From the UHGV virus genome UHGV-1550212: 64,000 bases of DNA, one strand, 5' to 3'. The notes beneath the pieces are model-generated. The model saw only the letters and a list, made by a program, of their open reading frames with translations, was not told the origin of the DNA and ran no database searches. The translations under genes and the position numbers were made by a program. Shown in pieces: positions 3,290 through 45,057 of the stretch. The stretch comes from a virus. Position 1 is the stretch's first letter; every line of letters begins with the position of its first letter.

Positions 3290-4585
3290 CTATTGTTTGC
3301 GTTGTAATGTCAGTAGTCCACAGTCATATACAGGTAAAAATCCTGCAGCATTGTAGTCTTCTGCATGTGATATGTCATTGTCTATAAAATGCTCACCAGT
3401 TCGCATATTATGCCAATGACATTGTATAACATTGCTTACTAATTTATAGTCATCTACATATTTTGTAGGGTCTTCTTTTGACAAGTCTATTGTAATAACG
3501 TCGGCAGTTTTCAATTGTTCTGTGTCATCGATGATTGACTTTAGCAATGCGACAATTGTATCAGCGTCATCCCAATCCCAAATTGTGACGCATCGATAGC
3601 CTTGCGACATTGCTTTGCAACATTTGTCTGCATGACTATTTGCATGTCTATGCCAATTTGCTGCAGAGCGGCCTGTCATATACTCAAAGCTATACGCACT
3701 ATTATGCGTAAACGTTGGATTGATTTCAATTGCTATGTTCTCATAGCGTAAGTCATATGTAAATGATTCTATTTGCGGTTGCTCAAACTCAAATTGAACG
3801 TTAAGCGATTCTAACAAGTATCGTTGCCACCATTGATTTTGCTTAGATATGATGTGACCTTGCGCAAGTTTACAATGTGTAGTCATGCAATAATATGGCA
3901 CACCATAACGCATCATATTTGTACGTACAACTGCTTGTGTGCGTCGTTTTAAGTCACCGCCCCACTTGTTGCCATACCGTTCAAGCTTTGTTTGCGTTGC
4001 CAGTTGTATATTCACACATCCATTTGCTTTGCCATATCGTTCAAGTTTGACTTGCGTAATTTTGTCCATAGGCCCAAATGCATTACCAAATTGTGCAATC
4101 TTTGTAGCTTTCATTTTGTCAATATTGCCAACACCTTTGCTGCCAAATCGAACAAGCTTAGTGTCGCCAACTTTGCATTTAACATCATGCAATTGTGATA
4201 TGAATTCTACACCGTATTTGAGCAAGTTATTGATGCGACCATTATAACGCTGTTTAATGATGCCATGCGATGTTTTGCGTGGTGCATAACGAACAAATGG
4301 TGTATTAGCAAGTTCAGCATCTCGCAATTCTTCAAGTTCTTTTATTCGAGCTGCATGTTCAGATGCGTTATCATATTGCAACGCGCCAGCATGACGTTCA
4401 TATGGCAATCTTCCATGCTTACGTATGAAAGCAATTTTGTTTGCATATTGCACACGTATCTTACTATGTGTAGATACTCTTGCGCTTAATTTTGCATATG
4501 GCGTTTCTGCAATCAATTTATCACGTTCAGCTTCAAGTTCTTTTATTCGAGCTTCAAGAGCATCACCAGTTAGTCGTTCAGCCAT
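3290..4585 (-). CDS. Homing-endonuclease-like protein, paralog 1 of 5 (coiled-coil N-module, (K/E)RYGxxxG repeats, Vsr/DUF559-like C-terminal nuclease domain)
   Basis: Start placed at MAERLTGDALEARIKELEAERDK by alignment with the paralog at 16845-17876. Repeats LVRFGSKGVGN / IAQFGNAFGP / LERYGKANG / LERYGNKWGG; C-terminal IEINPTFTHN ... GYRCVTIWDWDD ... GFLPVYDCG. The N-module is duplicated in this copy. Confidence 0.55.
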   Translation of the reverse strand: MAERLTGDALEARIKELEAERDKLIAETPYAKLSARVSTHSKIRVQYANKIAFIRKHGRLPYERHAGALQYDNASEHAARIKELEELRDAELANTPFVRYAPRKTSHGIIKQRYNGRINNLLKYGVEFISQLHDVKCKVGDTKLVRFGSKGVGNIDKMKATKIAQFGNAFGPMDKITQVKLERYGKANGCVNIQLATQTKLERYGNKWGGDLKRRTQAVVRTNMMRYGVPYYCMTTHCKLAQGHIISKQNQWWQRYLLESLNVQFEFEQPQIESFTYDLRYENIAIEINPTFTHNSAYSFEYMTGRSAANWHRHANSHADKCCKAMSQGYRCVTIWDWDDADTIVALLKSIIDDTEQLKTADVITIDLSKEDPTKYVDDYKLVSNVIQCHWHNMRTGEHFIDNDISHAEDYNAAGFLPVYDCGLLTLQRKQ

Positions 4586-4652
4586 TGTGCATGAATGTTC
4601 AATATGTAAATTCACTATATGTACATATAACACGAATATTCAAGTTAGATGC

Positions 4653-6644
4653 ATGGCTGAAGTCAAGAATCAAGTGTTTAATCCAGTAGCACAATTCAAA
4701 TCTGCTGAAGAAAAAGAAGCTGCGAAAGTTATATGGTGCAGTGAATCAGTCGCAATGGCATATGATGCAGTTGACCAAGGCTTGCCACTTAGAGCAAATC
4801 CGTGGTTCTTTGGCAATATTGCACTGCGTAAGCCCGGATTGCTATACAGATACACTGACATAGAATTGCGTGAATGGCTTAGATGCAAGTATGACATATT
4901 ATATTTTGCTGACACATGGTGTCAGATTTTAACTCCAGATGGCACAAGAAAGCATTTTAATTTGAGACCATATCAACGCAAAATGCTGCGTGCATATCAA
5001 CGACAAAAGTATACGATAGTTCTTACTGGGCGACAAGTAGGCAAAACGGTCGTTACATCAGTATTTCTCGCTTGGGCAGTCATTTTCAATCGTGAGCTTA
5101 ACATAGCAGTACTTGGCGACCGCTTGGCAACATCAAGTGAAAACCTGAACAAAACAAAAGACATCATAAACAATCTGCCGTTCTTTATGAAGCCTGGTGT
5201 GTTTGTTTGGAATGGCGGAATGGTCGCATTTGACAATGGTTGCAAAATTATCACAGGTACTGCTCAAAAGTCATCACTTGTCGGTAAGACAATTCACATC
5301 TTATATCTTGATGAGCTCGCAATTCCACCTGCTCAGCAATCAAAGACTCTTGTAGATTATGCATTGCCAACAATTGCGTCATTGCCAACTGGCAAAGTTA
5401 TCGTAACATCTACGCCATCTGGTGATAATGTGTTCAAGACTTTGTGGCTTGGTGCAATTAACAAAACAAATGGCTTCTTTCCAATTCAAGTAAACTGGTG
5501 GGATATTCCTGGCCGTGATGAAAAGTGGAAAGCTGAGCAAATCGCAATTCTTGGTGAAGATGCTTTCAATGAGCAATACAACTGCGTGTTCTTGTCAGGT
5601 GCAACGTCAATTTTCAATTCAAGAGCAATTGATGATATTGCAAGACGACAGCAAAAGTATGAATTTGTTGCTGATGAGCGTCTTGAATCACTACTCAGAT
5701 TCTTCATTGCTGATTCAGATGTCGGCACTGAACCCGAGCCGCACTCATTTATGACTTGGCGTGCAGATATTGACCCAGCAACACTCAAAAATGAAACATG
5801 TATCATCAATATTGACATTGCTGAAGGTTTATCTGGCGACTTTTCTGTCATACATGTGCATCGTATAGTTGACATTACAAAAGATGTTGAACTTGAACTT
5901 GATGCAAGCAATCTGTATGATATGTTTGACGATGACAAAAAATCATTGTTTGCAAAAGCAGTTGAAATGCAACGTCAAATGTCAGCAACACAAGCTCAAG
6001 ATGATGACGATGATGACGATGACGACTGGTTTGGCGCAGACGATGATGTCGCTCAAGGCGTTGATGCATATCAAGATTATGCGAATGCTGCAGTAGAAGA
6101 GATTGGCTTATGGCGTTCAAATGTGACATCAATCAAAGTCATGGCTCTGTATTTGCAGTTCTTAATGACGTATGTGTTTGATGCAAACAAAACAAAGATT
6201 ATCTATGAACGCAACAAATATGGTGGAGAGTTTCGTTCATATTGTTTGTCTGAACGTGCACGCAATATTGCAATTGATGAAGAGAGCTTCGTAAGCTTCC
6301 AACGAACTCTTGGTTCAGAACAACTTGCACCAGGCTGTTCAATTACGCCTGGCACCAAACCAGTGTACGTAAGACAGCTCAAAGACCTTATTGAAACTGG
6401 CAAGATTCTTGAAAACAATGCAGATACGCAAAGAGAGCTTACATATTTTGGCGGTGTCAAAGGCAAGAATGGTCACGTGTCATATCAGGCGTCACCTGGC
6501 TTCCATGATGACATTGCAATGACTCTTGTATCTCTTGCAGCATTTATGGACACTCGATGCAATGACTGGCTTGAACTGCTTGATGTGTTCTACAATGGCA
6601 GCAGTCAAACAAGTTCTGATGATGACGATGATGACTGGATTTGA
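4653..6644 (+). CDS. terL: Terminase large subunit (T4 gp17-like ATPase-nuclease)
   Basis: Walker A LTGRQVGKTVVTSVFLAWAV, Walker B HILYLDELA, C-terminal nuclease-domain GFHDDIAMTLVSLAAF, all closely resembling T4 gp17 as I recall it. Start moved to ATG 4653 (MAEVKNQ), divergent from the gene starting at 4585. Contains in-frame poly-Asp tracts at 6000-6026 and 6618-6635. Confidence 0.9.
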   Translation: MAEVKNQVFNPVAQFKSAEEKEAAKVIWCSESVAMAYDAVDQGLPLRANPWFFGNIALRKPGLLYRYTDIELREWLRCKYDILYFADTWCQILTPDGTRKHFNLRPYQRKMLRAYQRQKYTIVLTGRQVGKTVVTSVFLAWAVIFNRELNIAVLGDRLATSSENLNKTKDIINNLPFFMKPGVFVWNGGMVAFDNGCKIITGTAQKSSLVGKTIHILYLDELAIPPAQQSKTLVDYALPTIASLPTGKVIVTSTPSGDNVFKTLWLGAINKTNGFFPIQVNWWDIPGRDEKWKAEQIAILGEDAFNEQYNCVFLSGATSIFNSRAIDDIARRQQKYEFVADERLESLLRFFIADSDVGTEPEPHSFMTWRADIDPATLKNETCIINIDIAEGLSGDFSVIHVHRIVDITKDVELELDASNLYDMFDDDKKSLFAKAVEMQRQMSATQAQDDDDDDDDDWFGADDDVAQGVDAYQDYANAAVEEIGLWRSNVTSIKVMALYLQFLMTYVFDANKTKIIYERNKYGGEFRSYCLSERARNIAIDEESFVSFQRTLGSEQLAPGCSITPGTKPVYVRQLKDLIETGKILENNADTQRELTYFGGVKGKNGHVSYQASPGFHDDIAMTLVSLAAFMDTRCNDWLELLDVFYNGSSQTSSDDDDDDWI

Positions 6645-6653
6645 TTTGTGACA

Positions 6654-6707
6654 CATCATCACAAAACAAGCCAGCAGAATTGTCTGCTGGCTTGTTTTGT
6701 GATGATG
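6654..6707. terminator. Perfect 24-bp-stem hairpin (loop aattgt) between convergent terminase and DHFR genes; likely bidirectional terminator
   Basis: catcatcacaaaacaagccagcag / aattgt / ctgctggcttgttttgtgatgatg; begins 10 nt after the terminase stop. Confidence 0.6.
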
Positions 6708-6712
6708 TGCTG

Positions 6713-7216
6713 TCATCGTTTTCGATGGAAGACTTTGAATTTGTATCGTAACGTTCTGTCATTATCTGTGCATGTGTATAGTGCAGACTCAGATTTTTTA
6801 GTCCACATTCGCCAATTGACTGCAGGAAATCGAACGTCGCCTTCAGCATAATTGTCAATCATCGTCAAGTACATTCTGTCTGCATAAATCATTGCTTCTT
6901 CAAACAACTTAGAACCGCCGATGATAAACATGTTAGACGCAAATGCAGACTTGCAATATGCTATTGCATTGGCTAGCGTGCTAAATACGAAATAGTCGCT
7001 TGTTGGCTGCAATGTAGAGCTTATAACAATGTTAATTCTGTCGGGCAAGGGCTTGCAATTCATCGACTCAAAAGTCTTACGACCCATGATGACAATGTGA
7101 TTCTTTGTGAGTTTCTTGAAGTGCTGCAAGTCATGTGGAATATGCCAGGGCAAATCACCATTGCGACCTATGACATTGTTATTTGATACTGCTGCTATGA
7201 TATTGATGTATTGCAT
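6713..7216 (-). CDS. frd: Dihydrofolate reductase
   Basis: N-terminal IAAVSNNNVIGRNGDLPWHIPHDLQHFKKLTKNHIVIMGRKTFES is the canonical DHFR signature; 167 aa. Confidence 0.9.
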   Translation of the reverse strand: MQYINIIAAVSNNNVIGRNGDLPWHIPHDLQHFKKLTKNHIVIMGRKTFESMNCKPLPDRINIVISSTLQPTSDYFVFSTLANAIAYCKSAFASNMFIIGGSKLFEEAMIYADRMYLTMIDNYAEGDVRFPAVNWRMWTKKSESALYTCTDNDRTLRYKFKVFHRKR

Positions 7217-9835: not shown

Positions 9836-11740
9836 CTACAAAGATTTGAACAATTCCTCGTATGTTACAATTTTCTTGCCTTTTGCAAGTGCTGCTTTCA
9901 TTTTGTTCGACAGCTTGTTGACATCATTTGTGACAACATAGTCACATGCATCAATGTTTGCACCGACATCTTCAAGCTTACCATTTGCTGCATCAATAAA
10001 TGCGCCTTTTGTAGCCCAAGTAGGCTTAGGCGAGCCCGTCATGACAACTTTGATTGCTGCATCATTTGTAGACGTCTCTTTATGCATTTCATTAAACATT
10101 ACGAAGCATTGCGGAAAATGCTTGAGCAATCTTTGTATGACATTCAGCTTTATGAGCTTGTCAATTGGCTCCATGCTCAAGCCCTTAAAGTCATACTGAC
10201 AATTGCTGAAGTATGCAGATAACTGATACGCTGCTTTGCTGCCAAGACCAGGAATCTGCATGCATTCAATGAAATGCGATAAGTAAATGCTACTGAAGCG
10301 TTCACGTAAGCCTGCAATGACTGTACGGTCATTTTTGCTGTTTGTGTCAAACTGCAGCAGCTCAAACAGTCGTTCATTGTCAACTTCTTGCACAATGCAG
10401 AACAAGTCTTCAATTGTGGGCGCATCAGAGAATGTCAACATGACATCAAGATTGTCTTGTGCAATAAGCAAAGCCTCGCAAATTTTCGTAGCATAAACCC
10501 AACCAAGCCCATCGATGTTAAGCTTGCAAACGCCTTTGATAAACCTCGTGCATCTTGCAAATTCCTCAGGCATCATCAAGTGAATGCCATCGACATATGC
10601 ATGTACAGGAATGTCAGCTTTGCTGATATCACCAGGTTCAATACATTCTTGAATGTCTGGAATAATGTCGCCGCCCTTTTCAATACGAACAAGAGCGCCA
10701 GGCCAAATGTCATTTGCATGCAAAAAGCCATAGTGAAATGCTGAAGCTGCTTTTACTGTAGTGCCATCAAGCTCAACAGGCTCAAGTTCAACTCTCGGAA
10801 AAAGCTCACCATTGATTCGCTGACGCCAATCAATTCTAGTCACTCGAGTTACAGCAGACATTGCATCAAGCTTCAATGCAACCATGTTTGCGTATTCTGC
10901 TGCATTTGCAAACTGCTGCTCAATCCACAAGTCATCTGCAAAAGGCTTGACTACAATGCCATCAATGCGATATTTGAATTCTGGGCGTTCATTAGCAATT
11001 TTTGTGCAAGTTTCTGCAAACTCATTGTAATCAGTGACTTCAAAGACTTCTGCAATGAATTCTGCAGGCCAGCCAACTTTAGCAAGAGCATCTGCAGGAT
11101 TGGTTTGCTCATATGTTTTGCCATCAAGTGTGTCAGTCAACATGTATGCCATAGGGTCAATGTCTTCCATGCCACACATATCTAATGACTTCACAAATGC
11201 CGCAGCAGTATTACGCTCATTTTTGTATTTAACTGAGCCATCAGAGTTGAAGTGATACTTTTGTGCAAAAATGTCTTTTGCAATGACAGCTTCAAAGCGA
11301 ATCTGATATGGCTGTTCTGCTGCAGCAAGCTGCATCGGCACTTTGCCTGCTACAACAAATTTGCGCGTGACATCATAGCCCGTATAGCCATCACCACGAG
11401 TAACAACTTTTAGCAATCTGCCATCAGTGTCGTAATGTGCTTCACAGCCCATGCCGTCATACTTGTGCATAAGTAACATTTTATAACCAACAATGTTGCA
11501 CACAATATCATGCAATGTGGTTGTAAACTGTGACTTTGTGTGAATTGCAGCAAGACTTAATGCAGGTGTAAGATGCTTAACTTCTTGCTTGTTTGACTCT
11601 TCAAAACGAATCTTATGTTTAATGTCATCATTTGCAAGAAGCTGCTGTTCAAGAGCATCAAATGCATCATCAGACATTATCGGATTGCCCGCATAATATG
11701 CAGCTATAGCGTCATGGTACGTATTGAGCATGTCAGTCAT
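9836..11740 (-). CDS. ligA: NAD-dependent DNA ligase (LigA-like)
   Basis: Adenylation motif KYDGMGCEAHYDTDGRLLKVVTRGDGYTGYDVT (KxDG ... TRGDG); N-terminal Ia-like YYAGNPIMSDDAFDALEQQLL; 634 aa. Confidence 0.8.
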   Translation of the reverse strand: MTDMLNTYHDAIAAYYAGNPIMSDDAFDALEQQLLANDDIKHKIRFEESNKQEVKHLTPALSLAAIHTKSQFTTTLHDIVCNIVGYKMLLMHKYDGMGCEAHYDTDGRLLKVVTRGDGYTGYDVTRKFVVAGKVPMQLAAAEQPYQIRFEAVIAKDIFAQKYHFNSDGSVKYKNERNTAAAFVKSLDMCGMEDIDPMAYMLTDTLDGKTYEQTNPADALAKVGWPAEFIAEVFEVTDYNEFAETCTKIANERPEFKYRIDGIVVKPFADDLWIEQQFANAAEYANMVALKLDAMSAVTRVTRIDWRQRINGELFPRVELEPVELDGTTVKAASAFHYGFLHANDIWPGALVRIEKGGDIIPDIQECIEPGDISKADIPVHAYVDGIHLMMPEEFARCTRFIKGVCKLNIDGLGWVYATKICEALLIAQDNLDVMLTFSDAPTIEDLFCIVQEVDNERLFELLQFDTNSKNDRTVIAGLRERFSSIYLSHFIECMQIPGLGSKAAYQLSAYFSNCQYDFKGLSMEPIDKLIKLNVIQRLLKHFPQCFVMFNEMHKETSTNDAAIKVVMTGSPKPTWATKGAFIDAANGKLEDVGANIDACDYVVTNDVNKLSNKMKAALAKGKKIVTYEELFKSL

Positions 11741-11972
11741 CGTCTTCTTCTGTTAAATCATTTTCTTCTACCAATGTGTCGGTTGTGTCAATATCTGGAA
11801 ATTCGTAGTTGTTAGGTCGTTTTACGCTAATGTCATGCAAATGCTTCATAAGTTTATCACGAGTCATAAAGAACGTGTTATTATTATCATTTGCATACAT
11901 TAAGGGTTTTGCTGTAGATTCATATGTAGTTGCCGTGCATACATACAACGGCGAGCCATTCAGTGTTGGCAT
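11733..11972 (-). CDS. Hypothetical small protein with acidic C-terminus
   Basis: 79-aa ORF ending LTEEDDD; overlaps the ligase start by 8 nt. Confidence 0.4.
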   Translation of the reverse strand: MPTLNGSPLYVCTATTYESTAKPLMYANDNNNTFFMTRDKLMKHLHDISVKRPNNYEFPDIDTTDTLVEENDLTEEDDD

Positions 11973-11973
11973 T

Positions 11974-12417
11974 TCATTGCAATTGTTTTTGATACGCTAT
12001 CAATTCATTAAGCAATTCATCTGCATGACATTGAACAAGCAGTTGCCACGTTTTTGAATCAATGCCCTCAGTTTGCATATACAAGTCTACTACTCGTTTG
12101 TCAAACTTGTTTATTGCATCTACAGTAGCATTACTTGCAGGTTTGTCAACTTTCTTACCGCTGATAAAAGACCATTTTGGCTGTCTTGCATTACCAAGTT
12201 CTCTATGATAAGCATTCATAACTTGTGTCATGTCCATACCGAGTTTGTTGAATGCTTGAGCAATCTGCGGAAAGGCTATGGCAACATTGCGATTTGTCAT
12301 GAATGCATTGTCTGCTTTTTGTTTTGCAGTCAACTTATCATAATCGCTATCACGAACATACAATAGCTCCTTGAATTTGAAGAAGTCTACTTTTTGTGTG
12401 ATGAATTGTTCTGCCAT
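11974..12417 (-). CDS. Hypothetical protein (147 aa)
   Basis: ORF with promoter-like motif 12442-12470 immediately upstream. Confidence 0.5.
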   Translation of the reverse strand: MAEQFITQKVDFFKFKELLYVRDSDYDKLTAKQKADNAFMTNRNVAIAFPQIAQAFNKLGMDMTQVMNAYHRELGNARQPKWSFISGKKVDKPASNATVDAINKFDKRVVDLYMQTEGIDSKTWQLLVQCHADELLNELIAYQKQLQ

Positions 12418-24089: not shown

Positions 24090-24347
24090 TTAATTGTTGA
24101 GATACTGCTGAAGCTCAACTTCTGTTGCAAGTCTACATTGCTTAATATTGAACACTGTCATAATATGACAACTCTTGCATTTATGCCAAATTTCAGCAAC
24201 AGCAGTTTGTGTGTTCTTTGGCAATGAGCGTCTGTACTTGACAATGTCTGTAGTGCCGCAGCATTTACATGTGCCAAGCACTACATACAATTTTGAGTTA
24301 GTCGCGCTCAATTGTGACATGTCTAACTTCTGCTTCTTCATAGCCAT
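24090..24347 (-). CDS. Small zinc-ribbon-like protein
   Basis: CKCCGTTD ... CKSCH Cys pairs; 85 aa; start may be one of three nearby Met. Confidence 0.4.
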   Translation of the reverse strand: MAMKKQKLDMSQLSATNSKLYVVLGTCKCCGTTDIVKYRRSLPKNTQTAVAEIWHKCKSCHIMTVFNIKQCRLATEVELQQYLNN

Positions 24348-25719
24348 GCTCTCTTAGCTTTTCAATGAGTGCTTCAACATCTGCTCGATAAGTGTCACGA
24401 TTGTCAGAACGTTCAACTACTTTGTACTCTTTCTTAAGTTCTACAATCTTTGCTTTTAGTTTTTTCTGCTCATCTTGAGTCAATCTGCTGACTGCAATTT
24501 CAAGAACTTTGTGATTGATTGAATGCTCATCAAGAATAGACTTGACTTGTTTAGTAGTCATCTTATGCAGTACAATGACTTCGTCAAGCACAAGTTGAAT
24601 GAACTTCATGATGTCTTCATACCACTGAATTGTAGTACGAATGTCTTCAAGTCGTTTTTGCTTGCGAATTTCATAGAATTGCAAACGCCACTCGACAAAT
24701 CGCATAATGAGTGAACCGACTGTTTTGTATCGACGAATCTTGTCATCGAAGTCAATGACAGTCAAGTTGTCACGTTCAATTCTGCAGAACATTGCAAGAG
24801 TCCAGTACAATGAGTCTTTTGCAAGCAACTCAACAAGTTTTGCTTTCGTAAACTTTATCTCATACAGAATCTTGTCTTTGTGAGAGTAATTTGTCCATGC
24901 TTCAATAATGTCACGGTCAAGCAGCATATTGAGATGGTTTTCATAGCCATCGAATGTGTTATTGTATGGGATTGCAGTTACATTGACTGTAGTGTCATCA
25001 ACAACTTCCATTCGACCATGATGCTCATATACACCATTGACAAGTCGCCATTCTCCTTGCAAGCCTTTGACATACGGCGTAATTTTGCGTTCAGAAATAT
25101 CTTCGCCATCAAGAGCATCAATAACAGCATTGCAAACTTCAATTGGATTACGATTGATAATTGTGCTTGAATAGCCAACCGCGATGCCCATAATTGAGTT
25201 TAGCAAAATTGTGGGCACAATTGGCAGATAAAATTGCGGCTCAACTTCAATGCCCTCTTGCCAACGATTTGTCAGCAACTCATTGTCTTTCATGAGCAAC
25301 TCAAATGCATCTGACAATCGAACAAAGATGTATCGAGGCGCACCTGCATATGGGCTGTAGAATGTACCAAACTGACCCTCACCAATGAAGTATGGAATGT
25401 TCTGCTTAAAGTCCTGAGACATGATTGTGATATTGCCCTCAAGACTTGTCTGGCCGTGTTCGTAACCACCCTCTGCTTTTACATAGCCCGCAAATGCACC
25501 TACAGTTTGCTTAACACCACCTTTAAGACGCTTGAGCGCAACATACATGATTTTTCGTGCAGTAGGCTTAAAGCCATCACGAACATCAGGTATTGCACGT
25601 TCAAATGCAGTGTGTAACGCATACTCTTTATATCGAGTATTCAAAAATTCCGCAATGGAAATTTGAATATCTTGTTCTGTCAATGGTTCTGTGTAAACTT
25701 CTTGTTTTCGTCGTGCCAT
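24298..25719 (-). CDS. DNA topoisomerase II, GyrA-like breakage-reunion subunit (T4 gp52-like)
   Basis: FLNTRYKEYALHTAFERAIPDVRDGFKPTARKIMYV matches the GyrA/ParC N-terminal signature (RAxPDVRDGxKP). Start placed at MARRKQEVY (ATG 25719) so the promoter motif at 25750-25777 stays upstream. Confidence 0.8.
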   Translation of the reverse strand: MARRKQEVYTEPLTEQDIQISIAEFLNTRYKEYALHTAFERAIPDVRDGFKPTARKIMYVALKRLKGGVKQTVGAFAGYVKAEGGYEHGQTSLEGNITIMSQDFKQNIPYFIGEGQFGTFYSPYAGAPRYIFVRLSDAFELLMKDNELLTNRWQEGIEVEPQFYLPIVPTILLNSIMGIAVGYSSTIINRNPIEVCNAVIDALDGEDISERKITPYVKGLQGEWRLVNGVYEHHGRMEVVDDTTVNVTAIPYNNTFDGYENHLNMLLDRDIIEAWTNYSHKDKILYEIKFTKAKLVELLAKDSLYWTLAMFCRIERDNLTVIDFDDKIRRYKTVGSLIMRFVEWRLQFYEIRKQKRLEDIRTTIQWYEDIMKFIQLVLDEVIVLHKMTTKQVKSILDEHSINHKVLEIAVSRLTQDEQKKLKAKIVELKKEYKVVERSDNRDTYRADVEALIEKLREHGYEEAEVRHVTIERD

Positions 25720-25749
25720 TGTAGCTAATTTGATTTTATTTCCTATATT

Positions 25750-25777
25750 ATTGTACAACGATGTTGTTAGATTTGCA
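25750..25777 (-). promoter_or_regulatory. Promoter-like motif (sense GATGCAAATCTAACAACATCGTTGTACAAT)
   Basis: Recurrent motif ~30 nt upstream of ATG 25719. Confidence 0.45.
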
Positions 25778-28701: not shown

Positions 28702-28735
28702 GCAAATATATTTTTGTTTGTATATGTACATAAAA

Positions 28736-28765
28736 GAGCAAGTTCTCAATGTGGAGAACTTGCTC
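28736..28765 (-). terminator. Hairpin (12-bp stem gagcaagttctc / gagaacttgctc, loop aatgtg)
   Basis: Perfect inverted repeat downstream of the tRNA/non-coding region on the minus strand. Confidence 0.4.
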
Positions 28766-29159
28766 AGCTGACCTGTTGCCAGGTGAAAGCGTGGTGCAGC
28801 ACCTTGTGCTGCAATGGCTATGCTGCCATCGCCATAACGGGCTGAGCATTGCCCAGCATCATTACACGACCAGCTGCATTAAGCGTACGCTTTGCTTTGT
28901 TGAAAAATTTGCCAGTTATCTGGTATCTGCACATCTATTCAAGCGACCTACTATGCAATCAAATGCCTGTCGAGCCCAATGTTTGAGCAGTTGTTTGTCA
29001 GATGCTCAGCTGACTGCAGTCTTTCTGAGTGTATCAAGTTCAGCGATTCTGCATCTTTGCTAAATGGCAATAGTTCAGGTGGACTCGCCGAGAATCGAAC
29101 TCGGGTCTTACATAGCGCATCCTTGACTTGGTCCTGTAAACAGGGTTGTCAACATGCAT
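28766..29159 (-). ncRNA. Candidate structured non-coding RNA region downstream of the tRNA cluster, including a tRNA-like 3' half at about 29075-29105
   Basis: About 390 nt with no credible ORF, more GC-rich than surroundings, internal repeats (gctcagctgac twice) and a T-arm/acceptor-like CCGAGTTCGATTCTCGGCGAGTCCACC for which I could not find a pairing 5' acceptor strand. Confidence 0.25.
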
Positions 29160-29230
29160 TGCAATACGACAGGACTCGAACCTGCGACCTCGGATTGGAC
29201 GTCCGCGCTCTTACCGCTGAGCTACGTATT
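29160..29230 (-). tRNA. tRNA-Gly(UCC)-like, atypical (G at position 33, G1:G72 mismatch); possibly a pseudo-tRNA
   Basis: Minus strand GAATACG-TA-GCTCAGCGGTAAGAGC-GCGGA-CGTCCAA-TCCGA-GGTC-GCAGG-TTCGAGT-CCTGT-CGTATTG; canonical D and T arms, anticodon TCC. Confidence 0.5.
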
Positions 29231-29321
29231 CTTATCAATTGACTGCACTGCAATGCAATCAATCGTGCCAATGATATTTGACGCATAATTGCAGTTATGC
29301 GTAACAATTCAAATGTCATTG

Positions 29322-29394
29322 AGCCAACTGCAGGAGTCGAACCTGTAACCTGCTGATTACAAATCAGCTGCTCTGCCAATTGAGCTAAGTTGGC
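29322..29394 (-). tRNA. tRNA-Thr(UGU)
   Basis: GCCAACT-TA-GCTC-AATTGGCA-GAGC-A-GCTGA-TTTGTAA-TCAGC-AGGTT-ACAGG-TTCGACT-CCTGC-AGTTGGC-T; acceptor stem 7/7 paired. Confidence 0.8.
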
Positions 29395-29476
29395 ATAAAG
29401 TCGTTGGGCCATTGCAACCCAAACCTATCATCTTTGTCTAACCAAAGATGCAAGTGTTCTCTTACACCACGACTTG

Positions 29477-29548
29477 TAGCCGAACTTGGAGTCGAACCAA
29501 GCTTTCGAGAATGAAAATCTCGCGTCCTAACCGATAGACGAAACGGCC
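29477..29548 (-). tRNA. tRNA-Glu(UUC)
   Basis: Anticodon arm CGAGA-TTTTCAT-TCTCG, T arm CTTGG-TTCGACT-CCAAG, D loop with GG; acceptor stem has two mismatches at its base, so ends are +/- 2 nt. Confidence 0.65.
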
Positions 29549-29731
29549 AAGAGCAGTTCAAGTCTGCAGCATTGAACTGCGGAAACAATGCCTGTACGGG
29601 CAGCAAATTGTGCAGATACAGCGACATTGCAAAATCACACCGAACCAAGTTTGTGGCTCTTCTGTCTCATAAAAACAAGTAATCATTACACTTGGCACCA
29701 ATGATTCTGATGTAAAAATCGGTGTGTTATG

Positions 29732-29816
29732 CGGAGAGTAAGGGATTCGAACCCCTGGTACGTTGCCGTACAGTGGTTTTCAAGACCACCGCCATCGACC
29801 GCTCGGCCAACTCTCC
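29732..29816 (-). tRNA. tRNA-Ser(UGA), long variable arm
   Basis: GGAGAGT ... GTGGT-CTTGAAA-ACCAC, variable arm TGTACGGCAACGTACCA, T arm AGGGG-TTCGAAT-CCCTT, acceptor 3' ACTCTCC perfectly paired. Confidence 0.85.
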
Positions 29817-30010
29817 ATAAAACATTGCATAAGCATTCTTATCTCTTGATGAGACCAAGTAGCTAATTTGGCAAGTTTGTTATATCTATCGTGACTGTTG
29901 CAGTTTGTTTGTCACTCAATACACAAAACTTTCGAACATTCATTGACAGCACTGCAATATCGCTTTTTAAGCTTAGCCATCAATGTATTTATGCAATGTA
30001 TAACAATTCG

Positions 30011-30092
30011 TAGCCAAACCGGGACTTGAACCCAGACTCCTAATGGAACAACATTTTGAGTGTTGCGTGTCTACCAATTCCACCATTTGGCC
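30011..30092 (-). tRNA. tRNA-Leu(CAA), long variable arm
   Basis: Anticodon arm CAACA-CTCAAAA-TGTTG, variable arm about 13 nt, T arm CTGGG-TTCAAGT-CCCGG, acceptor GGCCAAA/TTTGGCT. Confidence 0.8.
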
Positions 30093-30182
30093 ATTTACAA
30101 ATGCAATCTATTTCACAACTGTTTGCATTTGCATTGTTTAACACTAAAAATATGATTCATCTAATCAAAAACCAGAGAATTG

Positions 30183-30256
30183 TAGGGTAGACAGGACTCA
30201 AACCTGCGACCACGTGGTCCCAAACCACGCATTCTAATCAACTGAACTACTACCCT
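30183..30256 (-). tRNA. tRNA-Pro(UGG)
   Basis: AGGGTAG-TA-GTTC-AGTTGATTA-GAAT-G-CGTGG-TTTGGGA-CCACG-TGGTC-GCAGG-TTTGAGT-CCTGT-CTACCCT-A. Confidence 0.85.
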
Positions 30257-30262
30257 AAGTAG

Positions 30263-30334
30263 TTGAACCGTCTGGACTCGAACCAGAAATGGCTGAACCA
30301 AAATCAGCTGTGTTACCGATTACACCACGATTCA
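30263..30334 (-). tRNA. tRNA-Gln(UUG)
   Basis: TGAATCG-TG-GTGT-AATCGGTA-ACAC-A-GCTGA-TTTTGGT-TCAGC-CATT-TCTGG-TTCGAGT-CCAGA-CGGTTCA-A. Confidence 0.85.
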
Positions 30335-32734: not shown

Positions 32735-33029
32735 AATCTGTCAATATAAAGCATCGTACAAGTCTTGAAACGAGTCGTCTATGACCCGTCTCAACTCGTA
32801 TCATATGCTTGGTGAATAGTGGACCTGCTGCTGTAACACAATGTCTGTCAAGGGCATTTAGTACTTTGTTCATTGCAATCAATGGGTGCAAATGACTATT
32901 CGGCCAGCATTCTTCTGCAATGTATGTCAAAATGCCATCGCCATATGACACGACTGCGCATTTGTCTGCAACAAGATGCTTCTTAGCAATCTCTGCAACT
33001 TTCTGTGTAGAACAACACATCACAATCAA
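32709..33029 (-). CDS. Hypothetical protein (106 aa)
   Basis: ORF; 4-nt overlap with the topoisomerase gene end. Confidence 0.4.
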   Translation of the reverse strand: MIVMCCSTQKVAEIAKKHLVADKCAVVSYGDGILTYIAEECWPNSHLHPLIAMNKVLNALDRHCVTAAGPLFTKHMIRVETGHRRLVSRLVRCFILTDYENLHQIQ

Positions 33030-35020
33030 TCATCTGCAGCATCACCATCGAAGCCCATTAGTACTTTGCGTACATGCGCATTGCCGCCGAGCCATGCATT
33101 GATTGCATCCCATGAGTCTTCTTTAGCGACTACTTGTTCGAGTACTGGCGCAGACATAATGTCTTCAAACTCTGTAGAAGTCAATGATGCAAGACCCTTC
33201 TTATGATTGACTTCCCAGTCTTTGCTGCCATTGAATTTGTCTGCGACTTTATTGTAATCATCATAGAAGTAGAACTTTCGCTCTTCACCAGTTTTGCGAT
33301 TGTTGCAAATGATGATTGGCGTGACTACGTTGTACACAAGGCCCATGTCAAATAACTCAGGCCAGAACTTATAGAAGAATAACTGCAGCAATGATGAAAT
33401 GCTGTAGCCATCAACATCAGCATCAGTCAAAATGCAAATCTTGCCATAGCGTAATTTGCGTGGGTCTGCTTTTTCATTGAATCGCAAGCCAAGCGACTGC
33501 ATCAAACCAGCAATTTCAGGCTTTTCTATGAGTTTCTTTGGATTGTCATAGTAGCAATTGCCGATTGACTTACCGCGAATGCAGTAGAAGCCTTGAGTAA
33601 GTGCATTTCGATTGACTCGAATACCTTGTGATGCAGAATCACCTTCTACAATGAATAGCATGCATTCATTACGATTTGTCTTTTGTGCAGCATCTACAAG
33701 TTTATTGACGTGAAACTGCTTTGTCTTGACTTCAAGTTTCTTATTGAGCTCCTTGGCTTCTTTGGCTTTCTCTTTCTCTTCTTCAATCTGTTTCTTGATT
33801 TTGCAGTCCATCAAGATGCGGTCAAGAATTTCAGTTTTTGTCAAGTACTTCTTGAGCTTATCTGAAATGAGAATTGGAAAGCCAAACTTTTGTGTTTTTG
33901 TAGCCAATTTATCTTTGACCTGCGCATCGAATTCAGGATTGGGGATTTTCCACATCGACAAAATTGACATGTGCTTAAATACGTCTTTCTTTGCAGGTTC
34001 AAACCCATATTTGTTTTTGATGTGACTAATCAAAAAGTCTGCGCATACATTCGCGATGAAGTCCATATGCGTGCCATAGTCACATCGAATTGAATTGACT
34101 ATTGCAAAGCTTTCAAAGAAGCCTGCTCTACTTGGACCAATCTCAAAACTGTAGTTTTCGTTTTCATCACCACGAAATTCTTGAGTATGTTCCCATAAGT
34201 CTTTGTATTCCCAGAAGTGTTTGAACTTGAACTCATAGTTTTCACCAGTGACTTCATTGTGCCATTCAACTACAAGTGGATTGTTTACATCGCAGCCCAT
34301 AACTGCGACTTCAATTGCTCGTGATAGCCACTTGTCTACAGTGTCATCTGGAATGTGGTCAAGCGGAGCTGCGTTAATCCACTCCCATCTGCCAAGGTCA
34401 AGATGAGCTTCGATGTATGTAAAATGTTCAGACTTACGGCATTTGCTGACTTTTGCCTCATCATGTCGCCCCATGTTGTCATACCAGCAAATTTCAAGTT
34501 TTTTGCCATCTTTTGCTGTAATGACTTTGAATGACTTAGACATCACATTGACAAGTGACGCGCCAAGACCATTTGTGCCAGACAATGCGCCGCGGTCAGC
34601 AACAAAATTTGAACCAGACCTCAATGAGCCAAATACCATCTGCGGTATGTACTCATTGTACTCTGGATGCATCACTACAGGAATGCCACCGTTGTCCCAT
34701 ACTGCAAGCTTGCCTGTTTTTGGGTTGACTGTGACAGATATGCGATTGACTACTTCTTGTGCATGACTTTGAATGTTACGTTGACGCTCATCAAAACTAT
34801 TATTGATGCACTCATTAAACATTGTATTCAAGCCAATTGACTGATATGTGTCATAGACACGTCGAATCGGTCTTTCAGCATCTTCATATGGACGATACAA
34901 CTCACATTCTTGTTCCGCAAGAAATTCAAGCGAACCTATGTACATGCCGGGCTTCAGTAGACAATGCTCGCGCGATGAAAGTTTTTTGAATTTTTCTGTC
35001 AGAGTGTTTATGTCAGACAT
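33026..35020 (-). CDS. DNA topoisomerase II, GyrB-like ATPase + TOPRIM subunit (T4 gp39/gp60-like, fused)
   Basis: ATPase motifs GLNTMFNECINNSFDE, VWDNGGIPV, GTNGLGASLVNVMS; TOPRIM motifs LFIVEGDSA and KICILTDADVDGYSI. Start at MSDINTL (ATG 35020). Confidence 0.85.
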   Translation of the reverse strand: MSDINTLTEKFKKLSSREHCLLKPGMYIGSLEFLAEQECELYRPYEDAERPIRRVYDTYQSIGLNTMFNECINNSFDERQRNIQSHAQEVVNRISVTVNPKTGKLAVWDNGGIPVVMHPEYNEYIPQMVFGSLRSGSNFVADRGALSGTNGLGASLVNVMSKSFKVITAKDGKKLEICWYDNMGRHDEAKVSKCRKSEHFTYIEAHLDLGRWEWINAAPLDHIPDDTVDKWLSRAIEVAVMGCDVNNPLVVEWHNEVTGENYEFKFKHFWEYKDLWEHTQEFRGDENENYSFEIGPSRAGFFESFAIVNSIRCDYGTHMDFIANVCADFLISHIKNKYGFEPAKKDVFKHMSILSMWKIPNPEFDAQVKDKLATKTQKFGFPILISDKLKKYLTKTEILDRILMDCKIKKQIEEEKEKAKEAKELNKKLEVKTKQFHVNKLVDAAQKTNRNECMLFIVEGDSASQGIRVNRNALTQGFYCIRGKSIGNCYYDNPKKLIEKPEIAGLMQSLGLRFNEKADPRKLRYGKICILTDADVDGYSISSLLQLFFYKFWPELFDMGLVYNVVTPIIICNNRKTGEERKFYFYDDYNKVADKFNGSKDWEVNHKKGLASLTSTEFEDIMSAPVLEQVVAKEDSWDAINAWLGGNAHVRKVLMGFDGDAADD

Positions 35021-35050
35021 GTCTGTAAATTGAGATGTTTGTATATGTAT

Positions 35051-35079
35051 ATTGTACAACAAGAATGCAAAACTTGCAC
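35051..35079 (-). promoter_or_regulatory. Promoter-like motif (sense AGTGCAAGTTTTGCATTCTTGTTGTACAAT)
   Basis: About 30 nt upstream of ATG 35020. Confidence 0.45.
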
Positions 35080-35207
35080 TGAAAATATACACATTTTCAC
35101 ATAACAGCAAGCATAATGCCAAGCAGCACTGCAAGACATATCAAACCTATGCCAAGAACAATAAAGTCCAGCATAGAATACGTGTCATTAGACTGTTTCA
35201 TAAGTAG

Positions 35208-37677: not shown

Positions 37678-38370
37678 GTGCGGTTTACGCTCGTAGATGA
37701 TATGAGCATACATTGTGCATATATGCCAAACATATATGTGTTTGCTGATGGCAATGAGTATGCAATATCTCCAATAGGTTCACAATCACTTGATTATGAC
37801 GGCTCATGTATTGTACGTATTACCAAGTCAGACTGGATTGAAATGTTTGGCGCTGGTGTTACACAAGGCAGACTTAAATTTGGCTATGGTACAAATGAGC
37901 TTGAATTTTGTGAATTGATAAGCACTGCAACTGCTGAAGTCAAATTCGTTATTGGTTATGAGCAAAACCAGTCTGTCACTGCAACATTTAGTGATTTGCT
38001 GCATAATCCACTTGTCGCAACAAACAACAATTCTGCACAAGCAACAATTACATATACATTTAGTCATGCGACATTTAGAACAGCAGCATTTACGATTATC
38101 GGTAATGTGACATTTATTCCAGGCGGTGATGTAAGTAAAACAGCTATAATTCTTGCGCCTAATTATAGTATAACAATTAAGTACACTACGTCATCAACGC
38201 CAAAACTATTTGAGCATTCAATGACATTTGAGCGTAACAATGAAATGCTTGAGTATGTTGGCACTGAAGTAGACAGACATGCGTATTGTCAAATGAGACG
38301 TAGAACTACGGGCTCAACTGTATATTGTCATGTGTATATTGATGATAGCATGCTTAATATGATGGATTGA
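37678..38370 (+). CDS. Hypothetical protein (230 aa), one of only two plus-strand genes
   Basis: ORF begins with GTG at 37678 (ATG alternative at 37702); followed by a strong hairpin. Confidence 0.5.
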   Translation: MRFTLVDDMSIHCAYMPNIYVFADGNEYAISPIGSQSLDYDGSCIVRITKSDWIEMFGAGVTQGRLKFGYGTNELEFCELISTATAEVKFVIGYEQNQSVTATFSDLLHNPLVATNNNSAQATITYTFSHATFRTAAFTIIGNVTFIPGGDVSKTAIILAPNYSITIKYTTSSTPKLFEHSMTFERNNEMLEYVGTEVDRHAYCQMRRRTTGSTVYCHVYIDDSMLNMMD

Positions 38371-44988: not shown

Positions 44989-45029
44989 TGTAACAGTGCA
45001 TTTAAGTGTTTTAACTGTTTTATGTATAA

Positions 45030-45057
45030 ATTGTACAACAATGGGCAAAATTTTGCA
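45030..45057 (-). promoter_or_regulatory. Promoter-like motif (sense TGATGCAAAATTTTGCCCATTGTTGTACAAT)
   Basis: About 40 nt upstream of the reductase ATG; its TGCAAA element lies inside the left arm of the hairpin at 45055-45108. Confidence 0.45.

Follow-up and report, generated by a model that had tools for sequence, protein, structure and literature searches.

The window, by which we mean the whole stretch of 64,000 nucleotides analysed here from virus genome UHGV-1550212, carries on its + strand a gene for a large terminase (TerL) of the T4 gp17 type (4653..6644; 663 aa plus stop). The ORF opens at ATG 4653 (MAEVKNQ...), a start also used by the homologues, and its stop codon lies at 6642-6644. 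The protein matches the Pfam family PF03237 (Terminase_6N) over aa 123-323 (8.3e-22). The structures of T4 gp17 (3ezk and 3cpe) are its top sequence matches by profile (E 6e-75) as well as the best Foldseek matches of its AF2 model (E 1.8e-35 and 1.9e-34), with further TerL structures ranking next. The model, with a mean pLDDT of 81.9, has a two-domain fold like that of T4 gp17. In the ATPase domain, Walker A (G126-R-Q-V-G-K-T132, 5028..5048, + strand), in which R127, Q128, G130, K131 and T132 are invariant, aligns with SRQLGKT of T4, and the invariant Walker B Asp and catalytic Glu (D220-E221 in LYLDE, 217-221; 5310..5315, + strand) align with IYIDE. Across 124 homologues, GRQVGKT and LYLDE are invariant or nearly so. 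The nuclease triad of T4 consists of D401, E458 and D542 (PMC3074133). On the + strand of our gene, their counterparts are D388 on β1 (NIDIAEG, 5814..5816; LDCSEG in T4), invariant in the 124 sequences, the invariant E519 (YERNKYG, 6207..6209; IELNSTG in T4) and the pair D619-D620 (HDD, 6507..6512; YHDD in T4), invariant or nearly so. Judging from sequence and model, this is a T4-type large terminase whose ATPase and nuclease motifs are intact.

Relatives of this TerL were found at the protein level only: a megablast search with the gene as query gave no match in 50,697 phage records, and the best cultured relative, that of phage MA9V-1, has 40% identity. Neither a portal nor a small terminase gene was recognised by a PHROGs and Pfam scan of 20 large ORFs in the window. 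At the 3' end of the gene, a perfect 27-bp inverted repeat with a 4-nt loop (6652..6709, not assigned to a strand) separates the convergent TerL and DHFR genes. It is distinct from the acidic motifs described below and is probably a bidirectional intrinsic terminator. Its core of A-tract, GC stem and T-tract is kept in five relatives, and a simple terminator scan did not report it.

In the RNase H-like nuclease domain, a clade-specific insertion (aa 408-478; 5874..6086, + strand) occupies the β2-β3 turn, as judged from the AF2 strands and the T4 alignment. It lies between β2 (398-407) and β3 (479-489) of the model, and T4 residues 417 to 423, with the turn TDDV, cover profile positions 409 to 473. 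Over a somewhat wider segment, aa 407-486, the net charge is about −21. A helix is predicted within the insertion (aa 427-447; 5931..5993, + strand; DSSP on the AF2 model, pLDDT about 50-57), and its pattern YDxF...F..A(V/L) is kept in relatives of at least 55% identity. The last helix of the model ends at aa 648. Beyond the nuclease fold extends a flexible C-terminal tail (aa 649-663; 6597..6641, + strand) composed of GSSQTSS, six Asp residues (6618-6635) and W-I (6636-6641). The only long segments with pLDDT below 50 are aa 410-425, 443-473 and 650-663; both acidic tracts fall inside them, and the model predicts both to be disordered. Together, the insertion and the tail hold −27 of the −28 net charge of TerL. 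The insertion is not the regulatory auxiliary β-hairpin of terminase nucleases (β8-β9 in SPP1; PMC2685612), as that hairpin is C-terminal and corresponds to aa 599-613 here.

The internal acidic motif (6000..6032, + strand) comprises nine Asp residues (aa 450-458, 6000-6026) followed by W-F (6027-6032), the Asp run being encoded by the tandem 9-nt units GATGATGAC, GATGATGAC and GATGACGAC. The C-terminal motif is a run of six Asp residues (aa 656-661) followed by W-I and the stop. The exact 18-mer GATGATGACGATGATGAC opens the first run at 6000-6017 and constitutes the second at 6618-6635, the two copies being 618 bp, or 206 codons, apart on the + strand. The original prediction had described a gp17-like terminase with the same 18-nt repeat at two in-frame positions, and both the Pfam and T4 gp17 matches and the exact search bear this out. 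When up to two mismatches are allowed, the sole further match in the 64 kb is an overlapping copy at 6009-6026, where shuffles expect 0.01. If the motifs are anchored on their Trp residues, 6009-6032 and 6618-6641 match at 22 of 24 nt, and at 23 of 24 in relative L001. No other run of at least five acidic residues was found in ORFs of at least 100 aa in the window, which rules out a proteome-wide acidic bias. We also looked for a basic partner, and no ORF of at least 80 aa contains a 12-aa window with eight or more K/R.

Other origins of the similarity were considered. Copying of one tract from the other, or gene conversion between them, is unsupported, since the similarity stops at D6-W-Φ and the upstream flanks have no in-frame alignment. 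The codons of L001 and L010 seem to co-vary against those of the window and L008, but the existence of two sublineages, together with the 9-nt periodicity, accounts for this without gene conversion. A phase-variation or contingency locus is ruled out, because the unit is 3 or 9 nt, the frame is always kept, and a single +1 codon variant was found among 13 sequences.

We compared codon usage of the tracts between the window and five relatives of about 90-92% DNA identity. All five keep the D9/D10-WF and D6-WI peptides, while synonymous codons inside the tracts vary. The longest exact DNA stretch shared by the two tracts is 18 nt in the window, and 21, 14, 18, 14 and 21 nt in the relatives, at a spacing of 609-621 bp. 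The register of this stretch shifts among the six genomes, and the repeat is thus not conserved at the DNA level. That the peptides are kept while their synonymous codons vary argues that selection bears on the peptide and not on the DNA repeat. In a simulation with the codon usage of the window (GAT 51%), two Asp runs give an exact 18-nt match in some register with P≈0.06. Once both runs exist, each of their residues has only two codon choices, and we regard the DNA repeat as incidental. Moreover, the internal tract is periodic over 9 nt, and both usable registers open with GAT GAT GAC GAT, so that with about half of the synonymous choices for the final two C-terminal codons the match would still extend over at least 18 nt.

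How widespread the two features are was examined in a survey set of 124 TerLs, with an NJ tree built on the ATPase columns alone. In 28 of them the β2-β3 segment is 60 aa long or longer, and these 28 form an exclusive clade on the tree. Every clade member has the insertion, which is strongly acidic in nearly all of them and weakly so in P0014, P0015 and P0136. The other 96 TerLs have a neutral segment of 24-48 aa, and the mean net charge of the segment is −18 in the clade versus +1 in the rest. An acidic C-tail was found in 27 of the 28, usually with an aromatic or hydrophobic last residue, and the last 15 residues have an average charge of −6.0 in the clade versus +0.3 elsewhere. The tail ends in F/W/Y/L/I/V/M in 23 members; P0002 and P0023 have an acidic end without a terminal hydrophobic residue, and P0014 ends in a basic stretch. 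In 24 of the 28, the longest acidic run is followed within two residues by a hydrophobic or aromatic one, where composition expects 13.4. An exhaustive search of 1.84 billion representatives returned the same clade pattern. The original prediction that acidic tracts are not a standard feature of gp17-like terminases holds, as they are absent from T4 gp17 and from most relatives. Because the 28 sequences make up one clade, the co-occurrence of insertion and acidic tail represents essentially one evolutionary event, not 28. The combination of an acidic run with a terminal aromatic residue nevertheless recurs, as P0155, from an unrelated TerL lineage devoid of the insertion, ends in ...RYDDDDDDDF.

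Within the clade, insertion sequences are barely alignable between subclades, and both sites stay acidic down to about 33% identity even though the sequence itself changes. At closer range, in the 90% cluster, the internal run is D9 in 12 of 13 sequences and D10 in one, whose tract reads (GAT GAT GAC)x3 + GAT; the D6WI ending is found in 14 of 14, and the flanking residues vary.

We favour an explanation to which, taken as a whole, we give a probability of roughly 55%. The tracts are a lineage trait of one monophyletic clade of T4-type TerLs, from large (about 180-220 kb) phages, and the two Asp runs would be this genome's version of the clade's paired disordered motifs, each acidic and then aromatic or hydrophobic. 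One motif sits in an insertion of 60-120 aa at the β2-β3 turn and the other in the extreme C-terminal tail. Selection on the peptide would target charge, tract length and the W/F/Y/L/I that follows, and the 18-nt identity would be a by-product of two-codon Asp runs and of a 9-nt slippage unit, GATGATGAC.

The analysis shows that the motifs exist, are conserved, are predicted to be disordered, sit at these places in the fold and are under selection as peptides, whereas we infer their binding partners and regulatory role. Most likely, the C-terminal D6-W-I would serve as a flexible peptide docking TerL on the portal or the procapsid vertex, its Asp residues resting against a basic surface and its closing W-I held by a hydrophobic pocket. 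For the internal D9-W-F, which hangs some 70 residues away from the nuclease core, we envisage either another ligand of this kind or a DNA-mimic autoinhibitory D/E repeat. In the latter case, it would fill a DNA-binding groove until the motor is assembled. In T4 gp17, the C-terminal 33 residues are flexible and protease-sensitive, and the protein lacking them retains all in-vitro activities (PMC3074133). An alternative model has the ATPase domain of T4 gp17 contacting the portal (PMC5389665). Docking of the tail on the portal is thus unsettled even for the model system. Low-complexity acidic loops can also persist without a specific function, which we counted against a functional role, along with the lack of a recognisable portal and of any strongly basic protein segment in the window and with the deviating tails or insertions of P0002, P0023, P0014, P0015 and P0136.

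A more daring version, to which we attach little credence, is that the near-identical D6-9-W-Φ motifs compete for a single basic and hydrophobic receptor site and so act as a switch built into the enzyme. As long as TerL is off the capsid, a DNA-binding or nuclease groove would be masked by one of the motifs. Once TerL docks, the C-terminal tail would bind to the portal or vertex, with the internal motif either pushed aside or captured. If this were true, portal binding would be coupled to nuclease licensing, providing a physical basis for the long-debated steric-block or headful control of TerL cleavage, and the arrangement would also reveal which TerL domain faces the portal.

Alternatively, the tracts might be tolerated rather than used. 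Slippage of GATGATGAC at two exposed, permissive sites, a hairpin turn and the C-terminus, would then have generated a neutral low-complexity expansion, as suggested by the 9-nt periodicity, with three units internally and two at the C-terminus, by the one D10 variant, by the predicted disorder at both sites and by the poor alignability of the insertions. However, neutral drift does not readily account for acidity maintained at both sites across the clade, nor for tracts whose length hardly varies in the 90% cluster although synonymous changes occur within them and amino-acid changes beside them. The excess of hydrophobic or aromatic residues after the acidic run and the lack of any other such run in the 64 kb also speak against it. 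We consider this explanation unlikely, although it is the strongest of the alternatives.

It is considerably harder to see the insertion as a decoration for immune evasion, bulky, highly charged and disordered, that would hinder recognition of TerL by host sensors such as Avs1-3 or Upx. SeAvs3 makes extensive contacts with the native nuclease domain, and the interfaces between Avs proteins and terminases depend on complementarity of both shape and charge (PMC13601566). The Avs3-terminase complex 8dgc is among the Foldseek fold matches, and the insertion is both clade-specific and fast-evolving in sequence. Yet the β2-β3 turn appears, from the strand topology of the model, to lie at the strand end opposite the active-site carboxylates read by Avs3, and evasion accounts neither for the acidic C-tail nor for the conservation of a hydrophobic residue behind the acidic run.

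The 18-bp repeats had initially been proposed as a substrate for recombination, and this idea now looks very improbable. Slipped-strand or single-strand-annealing deletions can, on rare occasions, arise between short direct repeats, and here an exact 18-nt direct repeat lies in frame over 206 codons, a spacing at which a repeat-mediated deletion would keep the frame; the five relatives also share 14-21 nt at similar distances. Such an event would join 5990-5999 directly to ...GATGATGACTGGATTTGA, with the junction ...ACACAAGCTCAA/GATGATGACGATGATGAC/TGGATTTGA, and remove most of the nuclease domain. The deleted gene of 1374 nt would encode a 457-aa, ATPase-only TerL still ending in DDDDDDWI. As it would lack E519 and D619/D620 of the catalytic triad, this product would be nuclease-dead and hence non-viable on its own. 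No homologue of the size expected for the deletion, with high identity and partial coverage, was found among 193 protein-database matches or in the 41-member cluster, and the full-length members of the 90% cluster (13 of 13) all have 662-664 aa. The shifting length and register of the repeat against a constant peptide, the 9-nt periodicity and the P value of the match argue in the same direction. Relatives carry the tracts, and no structural variants were found among assembled homologues. According to the original prediction, this would make them a lineage trait of little consequence; a lineage trait they are, but their retention to about 33% identity argues for a function.

As remote as recombination is an effect on translation, in which the D9 nascent chain, the longest Asp run in the window, would destabilise the ribosome (intrinsic ribosome destabilisation) and cause stochastic abortion near residue 458, yielding a truncated, ATPase-only product in a possibly Mg2+-dependent manner: the run sits 450 residues into TerL, when a long nascent chain already occupies the exit tunnel and counteracts such destabilisation (bioRxiv 10.1101/2021.02.02.429294), the acidic runs are shorter and interrupted in most clade members, and the C-terminal tract is left unexplained.

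We thus regard this TerL as a modest variant of a known enzyme, with no recombination device. Its DNA repeat is ordinary, a coding by-product with no variants in the assemblies. What deserves attention is that a whole clade of large-phage TerLs has gained and kept two features, a strongly acidic and disordered insertion in the nuclease domain and an acidic, usually aromatic-ended C-tail. For T4-type motors, it is still under debate which portion of TerL touches the portal and by what means the nuclease is restrained while DNA is translocated (PMC5389665, PMC3074133). Clean experimental handles would come from a lineage whose presumed docking peptide is simple, extreme (D6-W-I) and also present as a duplicate within the nuclease domain. 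Should the tracts prove inert, they would still be a lineage marker for classifying uncultured phages of about 180 kb.

Among characterised terminases, T4 gp17 is the same two-domain enzyme, with about 26% identity to the TerL described here, and Walker A, Walker B, the catalytic Glu and the D/E/D triad all align. It differs by its β2-β3 turn of 2-3 residues, in place of some 70 residues that hold most of the negative charge, and by its mildly acidic tail, which ends in SHGMSMV. The Chryseobacterium phages MA9V-1 and MA9V-2 are cultured members of the acidic clade. TerL of MA9V-1 has an acidic β2-β3 segment of 77 aa (net −11, ...VDGDDDFQMGDDLFEDYDIYW) and an acidic/aromatic tail (...EVDDFYGDGFDEWVG), without homopolymeric Asp runs; its annotation reads only 'terminase family protein' and says nothing about acidic segments. 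The sister group, composed of gp87 of Sphingomonas phage PAU (30% identity) and P0054, lacks the acidic insertion. PAU gp87 has a neutral 40-aa segment and a long C-terminal extension ending in DDSAESLMDMF.

As for the tail, the part of PMC5389665 that cites Yeo & Feiss 1995, Morita 1995 and Lin 1999 presents TerL C-terminal tails as thought to bind the portal or procapsid. The prohead- or portal-binding tails of lambda gpA and T3 gp19, and those proposed for T4 gp17 and P74-26 TerL, resemble the present one in their extreme C-terminal position after the nuclease, their flexibility and their small size. Their sequences are unrelated to that of our tail, and in a non-systematic survey of the literature we met, for those systems, no second copy of such a motif inside the nuclease domain. 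A 'LYWEDD' portal-binding consensus was set aside, as a literature search gave no match. An adaptor tail has been shown to bind the portal clip via its terminal Phe and complementary charge (PMC12407722).

For the internal motif, D/E repeats offer a parallel, as they autoinhibit DNA-binding domains electrostatically by occupying the DNA-binding surface (PMC10250230). Like D/E-repeat regions such as the acidic tail of HMGB1, the TerL insertion has consecutive Asp/Glu residues in a disordered stretch attached to a nucleic acid-binding domain: D9 (aa 450-458) lies in a stretch of pLDDT below 50 (aa 443-473) inserted in the nuclease domain. These examples are eukaryotic and non-homologous, and the TerL run differs in having a conserved aromatic or hydrophobic residue after it. 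That last property is shared with E. coli SSB (...DDDIPF) and with T7 gp2.5 and gp4, whose flexible tails combine a short acidic run and a terminal hydrophobic or aromatic residue and serve as docking peptides for partner proteins. These proteins and their pathway are different from TerL, and the resemblance is one of analogy only.

The large terminase (TerL) encoded here bears two disordered acidic motifs, which are conserved at the peptide level and sit at defined positions of a canonical TerL. Its gene starts at the ATG at 4653, as in all homologues, and ends with the stop codon at 6642-6644 (+ strand; 663 residues, MAEVKNQ...); the long ORF listed from 4425 runs over a divergent gene of the - strand. 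Every sequence and fold criterion examined places the protein in the T4-type family. Pfam Terminase_6N matches it at 8.3e-22, a profile from 23 relatives matches T4 gp17 structures at E 6e-75, and an AlphaFold2 model (mean pLDDT 81.9) matches 3EZK and 3CPE (E ~1e-35), followed by other large terminases. Among 124 homologues there is little or no variation in Walker A (GRQVGKT, residues 126-132), in Walker B with its catalytic Glu (LYLDE, 217-221) or at the nuclease carboxylates D388, E519 and D619/D620, and the motifs of these carboxylates line up with those of T4 D401, E458 and D542 (PMC3074133). The protein is a bona fide TerL of the T4 type, from an uncultured phage. The gene has no nucleotide match in 50,697 phage records; its closest cultured relatives are in Chryseobacterium phage MA9V-1 (40%) and Sphingomonas phage PAU (30%), and identical or near-identical proteins sit on contigs up to 177-181 kb.

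As originally predicted, the gene holds two in-frame poly-Asp tracts that share an 18-nt repeat, GATGATGACGATGATGAC, with exact copies at 6000-6017 and 6618-6635 (+ strand). The first copy starts a run of nine Asp (residues 450-458) followed by W-F, and the second encodes six Asp (656-661) followed by W-I and the stop codon. When the alignment is anchored on the common Trp codon, 6009-6032 and 6618-6641 are identical at 22 of 24 bases, so that the repeated unit is 'D6-W-hydrophobic'. With up to two mismatches, the sole further match in the 64-kb window overlaps the first copy (6009-6026; 0.01 matches in shuffles). Among ORFs of at least 100 residues, only the two tracts contain runs of at least five acidic residues. 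The only other segment of the window with at least eight D/E per 12 residues is the tail (...EENDLTEEDDD) of a small ORF at 11736-11996 (- strand, 87 residues stop to stop), which lies directly upstream of the gene for NAD-dependent DNA ligase.

In the model, beta2 (398-407) leads into a linker of low confidence, and a helix (427-447) and a region of pLDDT below 50 (443-473), home to D9-W-F, follow before beta3 (479-489). T4 residues 417 to 423 (turn ...IDVTDDVW...) cover positions 409 to 473 of the profile in the HMM alignment, which places the internal tract within some 70 inserted residues at the turn of the beta2-beta3 hairpin of the RNase H-like fold. The final helix stops at residue 648, and the D6-W-I tail (650-663) again has pLDDT below 50. 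Residues 407-486, which contain the insertion, have a net charge of -21 and the tail (646-663) of -6, together -27 of the protein's -28. We considered whether the insertion is the auxiliary beta-hairpin proposed to gate terminase nucleases and rejected this, as the latter is a C-terminal element (PMC2685612) whose counterpart here is residues 599-613.

An acidic stretch occupies the same insertion in 23 of 23 aligned relatives, down to 33% identity, and most of them have an acidic tail with an aromatic or hydrophobic end, such as DDGFGL, DDGYGI, DDYDLY, YYDDY or EDDYW. A wider survey of 124 TerLs, T4, MA9V-1 and PAU included, was split at a beta2-beta3 segment of at least 60 residues. The 28 long segments measure 61-123 residues with a mean net charge of -18, versus mostly 24-48 residues (26 in T4, same anchors) and +1 in the other 96; the last 15 residues average -6.0 and +0.3, respectively. 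Acidic tracts are thus a lineage trait and, as had been proposed, not a standard feature of gp17-like terminases. The 28 form an exclusive clade in a neighbour-joining tree of ATPase-domain columns only, and the sister group (PAU gp87 and the homologue P0054) is without the acidic insertion. The trait was hence acquired a single time and then retained, and the 28 do not count as independent cases. Scanning 1.84 billion cluster representatives exhaustively with HMMER showed the pattern again, the acidic insertion being present in about a dozen clusters at 50% identity. In 24 of the 28 clade members, F/W/Y/L/M/I/V comes no more than two residues after the longest acidic run, versus 13.4 expected from composition, and a residue of this set closes 23 of the 28 proteins. 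The insertion sequence changes fast, the helix pattern YDxF...F..A(V/L) being restricted to the subclade of at least 55% identity, and the charge and the acidic-run-plus-hydrophobic layout outlast this turnover. As exceptions, P0002 and P0023 have acidic ends, and P0014 has a basic end stretch and, like P0015 and P0136, is only weakly acidic. The combination of acidic insertion and acidic/aromatic tail is a variant of the T4-type TerL that is specific to this clade. We found no description of it in the literature searched, and the MA9V-1 annotation, 'terminase family protein', does not mention acidic segments. P0155, from an unrelated TerL lineage (~31% identity; neutral 44-residue beta2-beta3 segment, no insertion), ends in ...NLFKRYDDDDDDDF (...RYDDDDDDDF), a poly-Asp C-terminus with a final aromatic residue that apparently arose independently. 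Scattered other TerLs finish in ...DDDMDGWF, ...NDDSSWF or ...DIDDSTWNW.

The 90%-identity cluster has 13 full-length members from separate samples, with D9 in 12 and D10 in one, and D6-W-I in all 14 sequences that reach the C-terminus, while the flanking residues vary (A/T, S/V/P, D/Y, S/N). In five related genomes (~90-92% DNA identity), D9-W-F (D10-W-F in one) and D6-W-I are likewise kept and the GAT/GAC patterns differ. Such constancy amid varying flanks and codons means that the target of selection is the peptide and not the DNA repeat. Neutral low complexity born of slippage would fit the 9-nt periodicity of the internal tract and the single D10 variant, but it is unlikely given the deeply conserved charge, the fixed tract lengths and the conserved hydrophobic residue after the acidic run. 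It is plausible, at rather long odds, that the insertion shields TerL from Avs-type sensors, since SeAvs3 recognises the shape and charge of the native nuclease domain (PMC13601566); this would leave the C-terminal tail unexplained.

The DNA repeat is meaningful against random sequence but hardly so given two poly-Asp runs: simulations that drew Asp codons as the window uses them (51% GAT) gave an exact 18-nt stretch common to D9 and D6 in some register in 6% of cases. The longest exact inter-tract stretch is 21, 14, 18, 14 and 21 nt in the five relatives versus 18 here, with a spacing of 609-621 bp. The internal tract consists of three 9-nt units, and both usable registers begin GAT GAT GAC GAT; because of this periodicity, about half of the synonymous choices for the final two C-terminal codons still give a match of at least 18 nt, and gene conversion is unnecessary to explain the recurring long matches. 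The suggestion that the direct repeats could mediate deletion of the nuclease domain is not supported. Such a deletion would stay in frame (206 codons) and would cost the enzyme E519 and D619/D620 of its catalytic triad. No deletion-type homologue (high identity, partial coverage) occurs among 193 database matches or in the 90% cluster, and with the peptide conserved and the match varying in length we regard this role as very improbable. Equally improbable is ribosome destabilisation by the nascent D9 run (PMC9718836), an effect counteracted by long upstream nascent chains (bioRxiv 10.1101/2021.02.02.429294).

TerL is the sole long + strand gene in the window, the rest being transcribed on the - strand; the remaining + strand ORFs of at least 150 residues overlap - strand genes, except 363-926 and 37678-38370. 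Directly after its stop codon, a perfect 27-bp inverted repeat with a 4-nt loop (6652-6709) separates it from the convergent dihydrofolate reductase (DHFR) gene (6713-7216, - strand). The core AAAACAAGCCAGCAGA...TCTGCTGGCTTGTTTT (A-tract/GC-rich stem/T-tract) is kept in five relatives and the outer CATCATCAC/GTGATGATG is variable. This is probably a bidirectional intrinsic terminator; a simple terminator scan made no call there. There is no small-terminase candidate upstream of TerL, in contrast to T4 (g16-g17) and MA9V-1. DUF7487 proteins are encoded at two places (Pfam 9e-07 and 6e-07; repeated ...ERYG... motifs in one), beside TerL and close to the gene of the major capsid protein, the copy beside TerL also in three relatives (L001, L007 and L008), and a weak homing-endonuclease PHROG match (4.5e-06) adjoins the capsid gene (60025-61737). 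These DUF7487/homing-endonuclease-type entries (3293-4588, 58616-59674 and 61829-63217, all - strand) may represent mobile genes of the endonuclease type, grouped around those for packaging and the head.

Elsewhere in the window (GC content 40.5%), the ligase (9839-11740), two topoisomerase II subunits (24301-25758 and 33029-35134) and DHFR make up a gene set for replication and nucleotide metabolism, as is typical in large phages of the T4-like or jumbo type. The ribonucleotide reductase large subunit (41770-45048, - strand; Pfam 5e-74) may be interrupted by an intein, as residues 338-517 match an intein splicing domain under the gathering score; Pfam intein domains also occur in the distant TerL homologues P0100, P0102, P0103 and P0105. 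ARAGORN and Rfam agree on a cluster of seven tRNA genes (Gly, Thr, Glu, Ser, Leu, Pro and Gln; 28727-30334, - strand). ARAGORN's permuted tmRNA at 28727-29169, overlapping tRNA-Gly, is probably a false positive, since Rfam has no tmRNA at the gathering threshold.

The tracts are a lineage feature whose function is likely but unproven. That the acidic motifs are conserved and functional and the DNA repeat incidental we hold with considerable confidence; docking or autoinhibition specifically, with binding targets that we infer by analogy, is tentative, at slightly under even odds, and the statement as a whole has a probability of roughly 0.55. No binding partner was found within the window. It is a widespread view that large-terminase C-terminal tails attach the motor to the portal or procapsid (PMC5389665, citing work on lambda gpA, T3 gp19 and T4 gp17), and in a related interaction the portal clip is bound by an adaptor C-terminal tail via a terminal Phe and complementary charges (PMC12407722). 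Most economically, D6-W-I would be the clade's docking tail. However, T4 gp17 lacking its last 33 residues retains full activity in vitro (PMC3074133), and in an alternative model it is the ATPase domain that contacts the portal (PMC5389665). The same economical reading would make D9-W-F, on its long flexible tether, either a second ligand of the tail's kind or a DNA mimic over a DNA-binding groove until assembly; consecutive D/E repeats tethered to DNA-binding domains are electrostatic autoinhibitors (PMC10250230). By analogy only, the acidic motifs would work in the manner of the docking tails of TerLs, of D/E-repeat autoinhibitors and of SSB-type acidic tips.
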